Source: Octopus vulgaris | Taxonomy: Eukaryota | Reading direction: 5' to 3' | DNA: 64,000 bases | NCBI GenBank assembly: GCA_951406725.2 | Contig: OX597829.1 | Span: 26,536,001 to 26,600,000 of the forward strand | Part shown: piece by piece, positions 7,946 through 63,836 of the stretch | Numbering within the stretch: the first letter of the stretch is position 1 | Layout: the number at the start of each line of letters is the position of its first letter | Program-made: the position numbers and the translations under genes | The notes under the pieces: generated by a model | The model's database searches: none | The model's input: only the letters and a program-made list of their open reading frames with translations | What the model was told of the DNA's origin: nothing

Positions 7946-9589
7946 ATGGATAGATGATGGATAGATACATACATACATACATACATACATACATACATAC
8001 ATACATACATCCATACATACATACATACATACATACATTCGTGTATTACTTACTATTATAATGCGCATTATAAATATGAATATATATGTTTACGGAAGTG
8101 TATATCCATTTTTATATGCGTCTATATCTATATATGTATGTGTCCATATCATGTGTGTATATTCATATGTTTGTGTTTGTTACCATATGTAAATACACGT
8201 TCATGCACACCCATATATAAAATGTATGTATAGGTATATAATGCTTGAGTGTGTGTGTGTGTGTGTGTGTGTGTGTGTGTGTGTGTGTGTGTGTGTGTGT
8301 GTGTGTGTGTGTGTGTGTGTGTGTGTGTGTGTGTGTGTGTGTGTGTGTGTGTGTGAGTGTATGTGTGTACGTACGTACATACAAACAAAAATACCCTATT
8401 GTTGATTTTGAAATTCCAATGAAGGAACCTTGGATCTAGGTTAGAAACCGGTTCTTTCTCCATCCATACTACATACATACATACATACATACATACATAC
8501 ATACAGACATACATACATATATACATACATACATACATACATACATACATGTGCAAGTTGTTTGCATGACATATACATCCATCCATCCATACATCCATCC
8601 ATCCATACATACATACATACATACATACATACATACATACATACATACATATATACTTACATACATACATACATACATACATCCATACATACATACATCC
8701 ATCCATACATGCATGCATACATACATACATACATACATACATACATACATACATACATACATACATACATACATACATACATACATTCATACATACATAC
8801 ACACATACATACATACATACATACATACATACATACATACATACATACATACATTCATACATACATACATACATACATACATACATACATACATACATAC
8901 ATACATACATACATACATACATACATACAGAGGTTTGGTAATTCAAACAGGAAAATATAACAGACTATGGGGTATATAATTTTTTCTATTTTTGGAATTT
9001 CGTGGATTGGAATTACGAAATTTGATAAATGTCAATATTCGGAGCTCCTCTGTAATTGTTGTCAAGTAATACTGATAAAAATACTGATATCTAGGTCCTT
9101 AGATTGACACGCAGACAAACAGATGGATGGTTAGATTGATTAACAGAGCGACAGTTAGATAGATAGATAGATAGATAGATAGATAGATAGATAGATAGAT
9201 AGATAGATAGATAGATAGATAAATAGATAGATAGATAGATAGATAGATAGATAGATAGATAGATAGATAGATAGATAGATAGATAAGTTTCTTTATTGGC
9301 CACACAGGGCTGCACACAGATGGGACAAATTACAAGGTAGAGCTTTTCTTTTGGGGGATGAAAAAACAAAAAACAAAAAACAAAAGAAACAAAAAAAAAA
9401 CAAAAAATGTGGCGTAGGTTTTCAATCAAAAGGGATCGTAAAAGGGAAAAAAGAAAGAAAAAAAGGAAAAGGATAGATAGATCGATAGATAGGTAGGTAG
9501 GTAGGTATGTAGGTAGGTAGGTAGGTAGGTGTAACAACGACGAGGGTTCCTGTTCATCTGTTCAACAGAGCAGCCTGCTCGTGAAATTA

Positions 9590-9830
9590 ACGAGCAAGTG
9601 ACCGATCATTTCAGGCATACTCCTGTGTCACACTGAATTTCAGGAGAGATTCAACGTGATGCAGAAGGTGATAAGGCTGGCCATTTAAAGTACTAATACT
9701 GTTCGTTCTTACCAGACTGGAAGAATGTGAAATAAAGTGTCTTGCTCAAGAACACAACGCGCCGCCAAGAAACGAACTCGGGACTTTATGACCGTGTGTC
9801 GAATACCCTGACCATTAAACCAGTGCCTCC
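9590..9830 (-). mobile_element. tRNA-derived SINE family C (CORE/V-like); other copies or fragments at 10200-10320(-), 17396-17680(+), 36130-36380(-), 37337-37410(+), 58170-58270(-), 60185-60420(-)
   Basis: Shared head gaagg(c/t)gc.tgg.t.agtggtta..ggttcgattcc, core gtgttcttgagcaagacacttta and tail gcattgtgaccagc across copies. Confidence 0.7.
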
Positions 9831-10987
9831 ACTAGATAGATGTAACTGATTTAGGATTCTCAATCATGGAGTTGCAATTTCAGTCCAACTGTGACGTATC
9901 TTTTTCAACTGTCGCCCCTTTTCCAACTGAGCTGACTGATGTTATGTGAGTGGATTTTTGGTTAACGGAAACTGAAAGAAGTTTTTCGTACATTCATGTC
10001 TGTATGTATGTCTACATATCTATCTATCTATCTATCTATCTATCTATCTATCTATCTATCTATCTATCTATCTATCTATCTATCTATCTATCTATCTATC
10101 TATCTATCTATATATATATATATATATATATATATATATATATATATATATATATGTATACAGAAATACGTGTATATTTATGCATATATAAAAATATATA
10201 TCACCGTGATCACCGTGAACGACCAGGCTATCAGATGTTGTTACATATCGCTGGTCACAATGTGCTTCGCATTGTTTTAGCATTCAAATGACGCCACCCC
10301 GCTGGCTAAGTGAGCAGGCCAATATATATATATATATATATATATATATATATGTATGTATGTATGTACATATATATATATGTATATATATATATATATA
10401 TGTATATATATATGTATATATATATATATAGATGTATATATATATATATTTATTTATATTTATATATGTATATACTTGTATGTTTATGTGTAAATATGTG
10501 TGTGAGTGTGCGCATATGTGTGTGTGTGCGTGTGTGTGTGTGTGTGTGTGTGTGTGTGTGTGTGTGTGTGTGTATCTGTGTGTGTCTATGTATAAGTAGA
10601 AAATTCTATTCGGGGAATAAAGCAGAAATAACAGTTAGCACTCCCTCAAAGAAACGGCCATCAGTTCACAAAGGAATTAAATTACGATGTAGTTCAAATT
10701 GGCCGTGTAACCGAAAATCTATAGTATACAAGTAATAAACATTTCTACGAAGAATAAGCATAAAGTCAGCTGGTCCGAAAAGTGAATATAGATTTATCAT
10801 TGCCGCTTCTCACTTCACCTGATTTTCTGCTCATTTGTATAAAATACGTGTACGCACGCGCACACACACGCACACTCACAAAACATACACACACATGGTT
10901 CAAATGTCGAGAAAACAAAAGACAAGGACAGGTGAGAGAACAACAAGAAGGTGTATTAGTTTGACGTTGGGGATAAACGGAAAAGAC

Positions 10988-11021
10988 TTTGACGTTTCGA
11001 GCCTACACTCTTCGACAGAAA
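10988..11021 (-). ncRNA. Degenerate minimal hammerhead motif (family H1); related copies at 18838-18870(-), 41207-41238(-), 45091-45125(-), 50401-50428(+)
   Basis: Minus strand reads ttt-CTGTCGA-a-GAGT gtag GCTC-GAA-ACGT-C-aaa. The HHR layout has a 4-bp stem II and palindromic stem III, but A6 is mutated. Flanks are also shared between copies (ttagtttgacgct.gg). Confidence 0.55.
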
Positions 11022-11079
11022 CGGATGAGAGAGGGAAAAAAGAGTGGGAGAGACAAAAATCCGAGAGCTAAAAACAAGG

Positions 11080-61595: not shown

Positions 61596-62504
61596 CGAAA
61601 TAGTATCAAAAAGTTCCCGGACTAGTTCTGTAGCGCGCCAACAGATGGCAGCACACGGTTGCGTGCGTAATGAGAGTTATCAGTGATCTTCATGAGGCAG
61701 TGTGCCGAGTGACATCGCTGCATCTATTTCGCATGTTGTGAAATTTGTGCTTTTGTGATCACGTGTATGCTGTAGTCTGCGATTTTGTCATGGACAGGAA
61801 CAAAGAGCCAACGTGAAATTTTACGTTAAACTTGGGAAGTCTGCTACAGAGACACTGGGTATGCTCCGGTAAGCTTAGGCGACTAGACATTGCGTTGTAC
61901 GCAATGTTTCGGGTATCACGGACGCTTCATATGTGGAAGAACATCCATGGAATACGACGACCGTTCTGGAAGACCTCCCATGAGCGTCAACCCCGGAAAT
62001 GCGGTATTGCACATCGAGAATTCTCCCCCATCGAGAATTCTCCTCTGCGACGTTTTGAAGCGTTTGAAGGAAGACATTCGGCGAATGTGACTGAATCTGT
62101 GAAGCACGAAGAATTGGATTCTTCACAACGACAATTCACCAGTCACCGAGCTCTCCTCACTCGTGAGTCTCTCGCCAAAAGCAACAGGTATTACTTCCGA
62201 AACCCGCCCTTTTCGCCAGATTTAGCACCTGCGGACTTCCATCTCTTCTCCAAATTGGAAATGCAGCTCAAAGGTCGCCGTTTTAACTCTGTTGTCGAGA
62301 CACCAGAGCGAATCGCAGAAGATCCTCGACTCGCTTACAGAAAATGATTTCCATGCTGGATTCCAAAAGTGACAGGAACGCTGGTGTCGGTGTATTGTTG
62401 TAGAAAGTGACTATTTCGAAAGAGGTGATGTTAAAACTTAGATAAATAAGTTAGTTATTTTTCATCAAACATAACAAGTCCTGGAGCTTTTGTATACCAC
62501 CACG
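61596..62504 (+). mobile_element. Internally deleted mariner element with both TIRs
   Basis: TA-flanked TIRs cgaaatagtatcaaaaagttcccggactagtt and aacaagtcctggagcttttgtataccaccacg. Remnants EQRANVKFYVKLGKSATET, GRTSMEYDDRSGRP and PPFSPDLAPADFHLFSKLEMQLKGRRF. Confidence 0.9.
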
Positions 62505-62782
62505 TACGTACATATTTTAATAGGACTTGTTATGTTTGATGAAAAACAACTAACTTATTTATCTAAGTTTTAACATTTCTAGAGAGAGAGAGAGAGAGAG
62601 AGAGAGAGAGAGAAAGAGAGAGAGAGAGAGAGGGAGTGAGAGAGAGACACACAGACAGATAGATAGATAGATAGATAGATAGATAGATAGATAGATAGAT
62701 AGATAGATAGATAGATAGATATGTATGTATGTATGTATGTATGTATGTATGTATGTATGTATGTATGTATGTATGTATGTAT

Positions 62783-63585
62783 GTTGCTGACGACTCCCAA
62801 GACTATCACAGTTGGTAGGAACTTAGTATGCGTGATCGCTGGAACCACATTCGGGTCTCTGCGTAACCATCGATCGTTTCTTCGATTTACCTTTTGGTCT
62901 TGATCGAAGTTTTTCTCATTGGAGTAAAACCAAAGCATTCGAGCTTCTTGGTGTTTTAACTTGTTTAGCAAACGCTTCGCACAGATCGAACGATTCTCTC
63001 TCATCATATCCGAAATAAACTGATCCTTATGCATCACGTACGACTTGTACCGAATATCTTCATGGTCATCTCTTCTGACGGTGCATTCTGAAACTTTGAC
63101 GGTGCATTCTCTGGAATGGCTTTGATTGACTTTCCAGGGTTTTTGTCGGTTATTTCTTGGACTTTTTGAATGCAAAACACATGCCCTGTGCATGTGTTTT
63201 GCATTTAACTACTGATGTTGGATCTTTGATAACAGCTTCCAGCTCCATTTCAAAGTTTGGCAATGAAAGAGTGGGCAATTTTCAGGAAGCTAGCTATCTC
63301 CGTATCACTATGCTGCGCTTTTTAAGGAAACAATTACAGTGTCCCTTTTCATTTGCTGAATCAATTTGATGTCTGACATTATTTATCTGAATAGTAAGTG
63401 GGGTTAAAGGGATATAATATCCGGGCGGATACCGTATTGGCTCTCAGTTAAGTTCCACTTACCAGCTGACTACAACAATCAGTATCTAACGTCTGTGACT
63501 ACACTTAGTTGTTAGTCACATTGTGAATTCTTCTAATGGATAGTTCCGTGTTTTCTTCACTGGACAGGAAAAATTGTCTGGAGTG
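62783..63585 (-). mobile_element. 5' half of a maT/DD37D-like element
   Basis: ATG at 63379 (MSDIKLIQQMKRDTVIVSLKAQHSDTEIASFLK) and ORF segment HEDIRYKSY..LWFYSNEKNFDQDQKVNRRNDRWL..TKFLPTVIVLGVVSN. Truncated at (TATG)n. Confidence 0.82.
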
Positions 63586-63590
63586 TATAT

Positions 63591-63836
63591 TAACATTAAT
63601 AATAATAAAGAGTATAGGGATCTGTGCATCCTCAAAATTTATTTTATAGTTATATACAGCATATTATAATGACCTACACGTGTTTCCGCTGCAGCGGCTA
63701 CTCACTGTTGCATATGCAACAGTGAGTAGTCGCTGCAACGGAAACACGAGTAGGTCATTATAATATGCTGTATATAACTATAAAATAAATTTTATGTATG
63801 CACAAATCTCTATATTCTTTATCATTATTAATATTA
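63591..63836. repeat. Spacerless ~245-bp palindrome carrying hammerhead-like half motifs on both strands
   Basis: Centre tgttgcat|atgcaaca at 63713/63714. The arms match with scattered substitutions, and each carries GAA-ACACG(T/A)GT-A. Confidence 0.95.

Follow-up and report, generated by a model that had tools for sequence, protein, structure and literature searches.

Probable Penelope-like element ends and retrozyme-like units behind hammerhead motifs at (TA)n tracts in Octopus vulgaris, with variant cores and a candidate re-ordered fold

Background

In this study we analysed a 64,000-nt stretch of the Octopus vulgaris genome (the window; positions 26536001-26600000 of contig OX597829.1, here C16), in which a sequence-only reading had reported many diverse hammerhead ribozyme motifs next to (TA)n tracts. 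We conclude, with a probability of about 85%, that the motifs represent 3' ends from several families of Penelope-like elements (PLEs), together with two units lacking open reading frames (ORFs), and that they were likely copied into (TA)n by PLE proteins. Judged by sequence, families B, C, D, E, F and G are truncated, often inverted 3' ends of PLEs, longer copies of which carry a reverse transcriptase (RT) and/or a GIY-YIG endonuclease (EN); families A and I are retrozyme-like units by their sequence features, about 474 and 775 nt long and ORF-less. The phenomenon is real and mostly known: PLE hammerheads, (TA)n targeting and retrozymes have already been published (PMC4209133, PMC8557442; retrozymes, PMC7229834), and PLE stubs at (TA)n are expected from that work. 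The value of the present findings lies in the variant ribozyme cores and in the re-ordered fold of family I.

Methods

The genome searched comprised 2.8 Gb in 227 contigs; the window has a GC content of 34% and is rich in (TA)n. The 17 sites of the sequence-only reading were examined, the letters it described being present at every one, and were sorted into ten families (A-I and K). Nine families were searched genome-wide, and all nine proved multi-copy, with 457-3,352 first-look candidates per family, of which 40 copies were scored and 30 loci aligned per search; family K (40945) is known from the window site and four loci outside the window. Several queries stopped at the edge of the window copy and may favour copies ending alike. 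Divergence and covariation were assessed on copies selected by their tails or upstream sequences, since a core-based pattern would select on the core.

Results and discussion

Coding elements upstream of the motifs

The reading had linked the motifs to Penelope elements, and upstream walks from families B, C, D, E, F and G indeed reached RT and/or EN. In family B, pairs of copies 99% identical and 1.5-7 kb apart flank RT and EN; both domains are present in loci L103 and L369, and L369 holds an intact open frame of 713 aa with the motifs RWR, DKT, CxCX5C, CxxC and CxH. The 150 family B EN matches scored were 92-100% identical, and the window stub at 28071..28217 matches the L103 ends at 97-99% identity. 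The Hydra protein is hardly visible to searches against Pfam and solved structures, and motifs were therefore used in their place. Those of B match the Hydra diagnostics of PMC8557442, hence its placement in the Hydra clade, by motifs and not by a tree; an initial suspicion of a Naiad or Nematis element was dropped on the strength of these motifs. The likeness extends to RWR in the place of RWK (the clade motif in section 11 of PMC8557442), DKT, the cysteine motifs and CxH around conserved E and N, a C-terminal EN, (TA)n targets, an inverted 5' arm and a one-sided tail. The supplement of that paper lists Hydra-1_Obim with a hammerhead and a (TA)n preference, and many Hydra hammerheads with U17 and with a U.U at the base of stem II, the latter shared by B. 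The hammerhead listed there for Hydra-1_Obim is unlike that of B, and B differs further in its youth, intact ORF and microsatellite-rich 3' untranslated region (UTR) of about 2.5 kb. Family B thus appears to be a young Hydra-clade PLE with an intact ORF. A different PLE with RT and GIY-YIG, frameshifted, is nested in a family B insertion (L106:3502-5824, minus strand).

Families D and G lead to Hydra-like EN, upstream of D in L354 and L356 and ending 410-440 nt upstream of G in L351 and L353. The window pair of G at 63408..63839 contains no complete hammerhead.

In family C, locus L401 carries RT and GIY-YIG (Pfam E-value 9e-5) with a CX3CxxC linker about 1 kb upstream of the hammerhead, the space between being a (CATA)n-rich UTR, and its coding stretch is common to L403, L406, L407 and L412 at 85-92% identity. 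Inverted partner arms were counted by eye in 17 of the 30 tail-selected C loci. A fixed palindrome of 350 nt was considered for C and rejected as query bias, because tail-selected copies invert variably or not at all and extend into the coding element. Long C copies are concentrated on C16 (18 of 30 loci), and at L037/L039 (C7:57883428-57887049) a 98%-identical inverted duplication of 1.75 kb around (TA)28 has doubled a C insertion.

Family F, a sister family of C, has C-like RT/EN upstream in L197 and L177, with 40-50% identity to the C protein type and a CxxxxCxxC-like linker. For family E, a PLE RT and an EN with a CX4CxxC linker were found upstream in L531, L520 and L519, contiguous with the motif in L531, and more than 1 kb of CA-rich UTR separates them from the motif. 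Neptune-type PLEs are defined by a CX2-5CxxC linker (PMC8557442); C, E and F, with this linker before a C-terminal GIY-YIG, are probably of Neptune type, and Nematis stays a candidate. They differ from known Neptune-type elements in that C and E have non-canonical hammerhead cores.

Within the window the reading had found no RT or GIY-YIG near the motifs, and this held with the PLE and LINE (long interspersed nuclear element) queries used: even with 10-kb flanks these gave nothing but a remnant of the family H LINE.

Insertion at (TA)n tracts

The reported link to (TA)n stood: 10 of the 17 sites have a tract of (TA)6 or longer no more than 100 nt away, against 35.5% of window positions. Among aligned copies, (TA)4 follows the 3' end in 28/29 for B, 24/29 for I, 21/29 for A, 17/29 for D, 15/28 for G, 13/29 for C, 10/29 for E and 4/29 each for F and H, with a background of 5.4%; the bias is therefore weak for F. 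In H, (CATA)2 occurs at the 3' end in 11/29 (background 2.6%). Most copies are 100-600 nt long, truncated close to the hammerhead at variable breakpoints. Each family set of 30 loci included 1-10 with inverted pairs, and arms or partial tandems were seen in L103 and L369. Truncated copies with an inverted arm are the published pattern of PLE insertion (PMC8557442). The 3' UTRs of B, C, E and H include 0.3-2.5 kb of inherited (TA)-, (CA)- or (CATA)-like low-complexity sequence (for example L103:3880-6440 and L401:6850-7800), which means that some microsatellites of this genome were carried by the elements and were not their targets.

The reading had inferred that all the motifs are independent non-autonomous retrozymes. 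The window free of RT and EN, the shortness of most copies and the ORF-less units A and I all speak for this. It is nevertheless improbable, since same-orientation RT and/or EN lie upstream of B, C, D, E, F and G, truncation points vary and the element upstream of H is a LINE with an ORF; as regards B, C, E and F the idea is already contradicted. 'Non-autonomous' thus fits two of the ten families (A and I), six being coding PLE ends and H a LINE 3' UTR.

If the motifs are PLE ends, the GIY-YIG endonuclease of the PLE protein would nick (TA)n, reverse transcription would start in the tail 70-300 nt past the hammerhead, and copying would usually stop after 100-600 nt, often with an inverted second arm. 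Such early stops and inverted arms would leave hammerhead stubs without ORFs genome-wide. Copies continue unbroken through the predicted cut site, so the RNA used as template would either have escaped cutting or have been re-joined into a tandem or circular form. From A and I, successive hammerheads may release a unit RNA able to circularise, as in retrozymes, and so may supply tandem or circular RNA to the PLE machinery. For the coding families, cutting is probably slow or not required, given that lineages with A6U and with an unpaired G3.G8 have spread; the G3-C8 swap of C and the re-ordered fold of I likely keep a working active site. The PLE protein of anole nicks AT-rich DNA and begins reverse transcription internally, and hammerhead mutants were without effect on its insertion in vitro (PMC11167929).

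Folds of the window copies and chance controls

The CUGANGA/GAAA/NUH core is present in the majorities of A, B, D, F and G; C departs from it by G3-C8, E by U6, K by C4 and H by C4 and A5. Type I helix order, ascribed by the reading to its families, characterises the majorities of A-G and K and fails for H (8410), which is no hammerhead, and for I (12088), which is re-ordered. The folds listed as complete or nearly so were upheld by our descriptor at 28082(-) and 39555(+) and failed at 21526, 47822 and 39486; in all, the window motifs passing a descriptor are 28082, 39555 and 10988. At 21526, stem III contains a C.A mismatch peculiar to this copy. A palindromic stem III is a family-level feature of C, D, E and G. 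It is not one of A, where the CCCGGG at 21526 is private and the family palindrome imperfect, of F, where stem III varies, or of B, where a true stem of 4 bp closes a loop of 8 nt. The A(A/T)TAAA signal reported downstream of several motifs was present in 5 of the 14 checked.

Chance matches in AT-rich, microsatellite-laden DNA were weighed as a source of the motifs. The type I descriptor gave three A6-core matches in the window, against a mean of 0.55 and a maximum of 3 in 60 shuffles, and one of the three (23296) looks like chance, so that the window alone is weak evidence. The loose CUGANGA...GAAA matches at 66, 11974, 23296 and 34025 likewise look random, and with 17510 were set aside as chance. 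In 578 kb of locus flanks (12 shuffles), however, the descriptor gave 6 C3-G8 matches against 0.08 (two of the six in loci seeded by their own family), 7 U3-A8 matches against 0.58 (two rows being the same place) and 4 C3-G8/U6 matches against 0.17, and exact genome-wide patterns returned 3,162 matches for C, 10,087 for E, 324 for I and 99 for A, with none for any reversed control. The comparison with shuffled sequence advised by the reading therefore gives a window count within the shuffle range and clear enrichment in the flanks and genome. With hundreds to thousands of exact copies at a fixed place at element 3' ends, chance is refuted for nine families and hardly credible as a general explanation; the resemblance of H itself is probably chance.

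The expectation that standard annotation would miss the motifs was borne out. Rfam at the gathering score gave no match in the window, and the best motif itself brought up none of its hammerhead families; its E-value scan produced solely microsatellite-driven miRNA matches among the 150 of 842 rows listed. A long hairpin at 62424-62580, absent from the list of the reading, surfaces as a miRNA-model match, and at 35030-35389 a 184-nt unit from a common repeat resembling a short interspersed nuclear element occurs twice in tandem.

Features of the ten families in the window are collected in Table 1.

Table 1. Hammerhead-related features of the window (strand '.' for inverted or two-sided features)
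Feature	Position	Strand	Remarks
Family H	8368..8463	+	3' UTR hairpin of non-LTR retrotransposon; hammerhead-like letters, core CCAAUGA
Family E stub	10895..11031	-	Minimal type I hammerhead, A6U core, ACGU palindrome
Family I stub	12020..12266	-	Re-ordered hammerhead 12113-12185
Family I inverted partner arm	12305..12444	+	Damaged
Family F stub	12707..12885	-	Canonical C3-G8 core 12840-12846; stem I decayed here
Family E stub	18766..18879	-	Decayed
Family A greater-than-unit copy	21258..21882	-	Terminal direct repeat of ~150 nt (21734-21882, 21258-21409); runs into (TA)n
Family A type I hammerhead	21526..21584	-	Canonical core, A.A at stem II base, predicted cut after AUC
Family B stub	28071..28217	.	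80-nt hammerhead arm and oppositely oriented 'tail'
Family B complete type I hammerhead	28082-28132	-	Passes descriptor
Family C inverted stub	39486..39746	.	Between (TA)n tracts
Family C second arm	39486-39533	-	Runs into (TA)27 at stem I
Family C complete hammerhead	39555-39605	+	G3-C8-swapped core, U17
Family K	40855..40970	-	3' half of type I hammerhead, cut by (TA)20
Diverged family E relative	41130..41240 (ends approximate)	-	A6, C3 lost
Diverged family E relative	45010..45125 (ends approximate)	-	A6, decayed
Family D inverted stub	47530..47915	.	Hammerhead about 47822-47893 (+), 13 nt of stem II deleted
Family E stub	50402..50505	+	Microsatellite cuts into core
Family B stub lacking first core letters	50725..50854	-	130/130 identical to pseudo-long terminal repeat of L369
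Family G inverted pair	63408..63839	.	Centre near 63713; CUGAUGA half missing in both arms

The ORF-less units A and I

In the window copy of A the terminal repeats lie 473-476 nt apart, giving a unit of about 474 nt, and closure of this unit was also found in L009 and in L013, where two A hammerheads stand 476 nt apart and the longest Met ORF is 29 aa. Of 30 upstream-selected loci, 7 repeat the I motif head to tail with a spacing of 722-782 nt, and one further locus has a spacing of 1,297 nt and an expanded TA run; among 30 motif-selected loci no such recurrence was seen. The longest Met ORFs in two I units are 107 and 165 aa, and the unit gave no PLE protein matches. PLE-protein matches close to A (L365) and I (L311) were discounted, their orientation or distance marking them as neighbours.

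Like the metazoan non-LTR retrozymes, A and I are ORF-less, arranged head to tail in greater-than-unit copies and have one hammerhead per unit. They differ in unit size, since units of 150-450 bp are given for those retrozymes (PMC7229834; bioRxiv 10.64898/2026.07.22.740005), in being dispersed copies of one to two units with PLE-type inverted arms, and in being known here from DNA. The hammerhead of I is, moreover, re-ordered; not being type I, it makes I retrozyme-like, yet not a retrozyme as defined.

The re-ordered hammerhead of family I and the Naiads

The first part of the I motif runs through the 5' strand of stem II, an extra helix and stem III, cut site and stem I; the second part consists of the 3' strand of stem II, GAAA and stem III, then the extra helix, and stem I followed by CUGAGGA. 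The window copy and 13 of the 30 family I loci conform to a descriptor of this order. With an intact CUGANGA it made 10 distinct matches in 1.77 Mb and none in each of six shuffles; the window copy accounts for one of the ten, sisters of I for four and sequences unrelated to I for five, and a looser version made 4 matches against 0-2 in shuffles. All core letters are kept where the fold occurs in unrelated sequences. Unrelated re-ordered hammerheads were noted at L238, L351, L448, L138 and L157.

Type SGC (PMC10085705) shares with I the order of the cut-site, GAAA and CUGANGA blocks, a pseudoknot and an extra helix. Unlike type SGC, I has its chain open at the junction of A9 and G10.1, with the 5' strand of stem II upstream of the cut site and no stem II strand directly after CUGANGA; the source also differs, type SGC coming from metatranscriptomes and I from a repeat in an animal genome. 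The A9-G10.1 junction was taken as uninterruptible in PMC10085705. No re-ordered hammerhead open at A9/G10.1 was found in the literature searched, which was mostly without subscription papers; the supplement of PMC10085705 could hold such folds.

Naiads are described as lacking canonical hammerheads (PMC8557442). In the supplement of that paper the 3' ends of Naiad_Obim and Naiad_Ovul, read by eye, have a like order with all four helices different. A comparison of six short C and I motifs with the same supplement gave only two single matches, both unrelated. In the loci examined no Naiad ORF was attached to family I, and mobilisation of I by Naiads is thus something we infer. On balance we lean, with slightly better than even confidence, towards I being a retrozyme-like RNA whose hammerhead works and is wired in a new way, the ribozyme that Naiads seemed to lack, with its unit mobilised by Naiad enzymes, and towards the G3-C8, U3-A8, A6U, U4C and G3.G8 cores, which this genome has in sister families of high copy number, being a natural test of the need of PLE hammerheads to cut.

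Variant cores

The core at 39555/39486 is GUGAACA and not CUGANGA, a point unstated in the reading. Genome-wide, GUGAACA has 3,162 exact copies and C3-G8 none in the C context, and it is found in 28 of 31 motifs of tail-selected loci. Families C and F have stem I and the stem II base in common and differ at both positions 3 and 8; as F keeps CUGAAGA with the stem I of C, the core of C represents a natural compensatory 3-8 swap. Across families the 3-8 pair is C-G, U-A or G-C. A further U3-A8 family, with U.U at the stem II base and lying outside the sites of the reading, was encountered in the flanks of L045, L052/L244, L308 and L112. In E, U6 was present in 97 of the first 100 listed of 10,087 matches and in 35 of 38 upstream-selected copies.

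A G3.G8 form of C exists in 149 exact copies, and of the first 100 listed 47 are on C16 and one on the 226-Mb C1, a concentration that suggests local spread from a source on chromosome 16. The first 10.7 Mb of C16 hold 40 G3.G8 matches. As an ancestral step from C3-G8 to G3-C8 this form was not accepted: three of the four copies aligned lie inside one C subfamily, and this nesting makes a derived state at least as likely.

A natural G3-C8 core was not found in the literature searched, which gave only engineered cases and had most subscription papers and supplements outside its scope; nor was an A6U core family, and the supplements of PMC4209133 and PMC3088659 may list such variants. Section 8 of PMC3088659 lists natural U3-A8 and A6C, the latter below 0.1 per min, and not G3-C8. 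With the engineered double change C3G/G8C, cleavage is regained in part, a PLE hammerhead being among the cases (PMC11167929). The minimal type I PLE hammerheads of PMC4209133 resemble the present ones in the extra base after A9, the short palindromic stem III, the diversity of families per genome, the prevalence of lone truncated copies, the inverted pairs and a natural U3-A8 variant; U3-A8 is the only variant reported in the sections consulted there, whereas here G3-C8, A6U and U4C are also family-wide.

It is possible, though in our view less likely than not, that the A6U, G3-C8 and re-ordered folds have little or no catalytic activity and persist as structural signals (to the PLE protein, for instance) or simply by hitch-hiking. 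Changes at A6 lower activity, as the A6C rate illustrates (PMC3088659, section 8), minimal PLE hammerheads cut poorly in vitro (PMC4209133), cleavage was not needed for insertion in vitro (PMC11167929), the G3.G8 sub-lineage reached its 149 copies, and covariation within families was absent. The alternation of the 3-8 pair by family is, on the other hand, what selection on an active-site pair predicts; G3-C8 has been reported as worse with C17 than with G17 (PMC3884650, data not shown there), and C has U17 rather than C17; and the re-ordered fold keeps its core letters over unrelated sequences.

Families H and K

The letters at 8410 were rejected as a hammerhead because U4 and G5 are absent and stem I is open, the sequence folding instead to another hairpin. 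CCAAUGA is the core in 26 of 32 H motifs and CUGANGA in none (overlapping loci may repeat). Upstream lie a CCHC knuckle and a restriction-like endonuclease, and 12 of the 30 loci have the C-terminus of the latter in the orientation of the motif. The relatives of H are RT proteins, the longest of 1,158 aa, and relatives of 1,140-1,160 aa combine RT, CCHC knuckle and RHD/PD..D-type endonuclease. This layout, including the microsatellite-flanked 3' end, is one we take to be R4/Dong-type, by layout and not by a tree; a 3' UTR hairpin that mimics half a hammerhead sets H apart from that type. H is accordingly a LINE whose 3' UTR hairpin only looks like a hammerhead. Dong-R4 is listed for octopus in PMC13282606. 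A PLE-protein match near H (L361) was dismissed as a neighbour by orientation or distance. About 3 kb past the window end, a longer H copy retains the endonuclease C-terminus (L414:2696-3360, minus strand).

Full copies of K show three helices in type I order, with the core CCGAUGA (U4C) in three of the four seen.

Evidence weighing against the proposed reading

Several results tell against parts of this interpretation. Protein matches for D and G are weak (24-39% identity) and link EN only, in two loci each, with the EN of L356 about 1.2 kb upstream against about 0.6 kb in L354. The clades of C, E and F were assigned by motifs and not by a tree, the Naiad likeness was read by eye and not computed, and the loci examined yielded neither autonomous partners of A and I nor an RT/EN ORF linked to K. 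Most individual window copies are damaged, and cleavage at the proposed sites is a prediction from sequence. The stem covariation looked for within families did not appear, decay there being single-sided with no compensatory pairs; it was seen only when families were compared with one another. The core of tail-selected C copies is no better kept than neighbouring columns, with a divergence of 2.9% against 4.8% in stem II and 4.0% in the loop, and recovery bias may account for the lower divergence of the core in E and I. Overall, the observation of the sequence-only reading is partly confirmed and its interpretation partly supported.

Conclusions

The function of PLE hammerheads is described as unclear in PMC8557442, and insertion proceeds in vitro without cleavage (PMC11167929). 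The matched variants of this genome, namely canonical F and swapped C, the G3.G8 sub-lineage and the A6U family of 10,000 copies, would allow ribozyme activity to be compared with copy success. If the re-ordered fold cuts, hammerheads would gain a further topology, and the 'half cores' described for Naiads would be accounted for.

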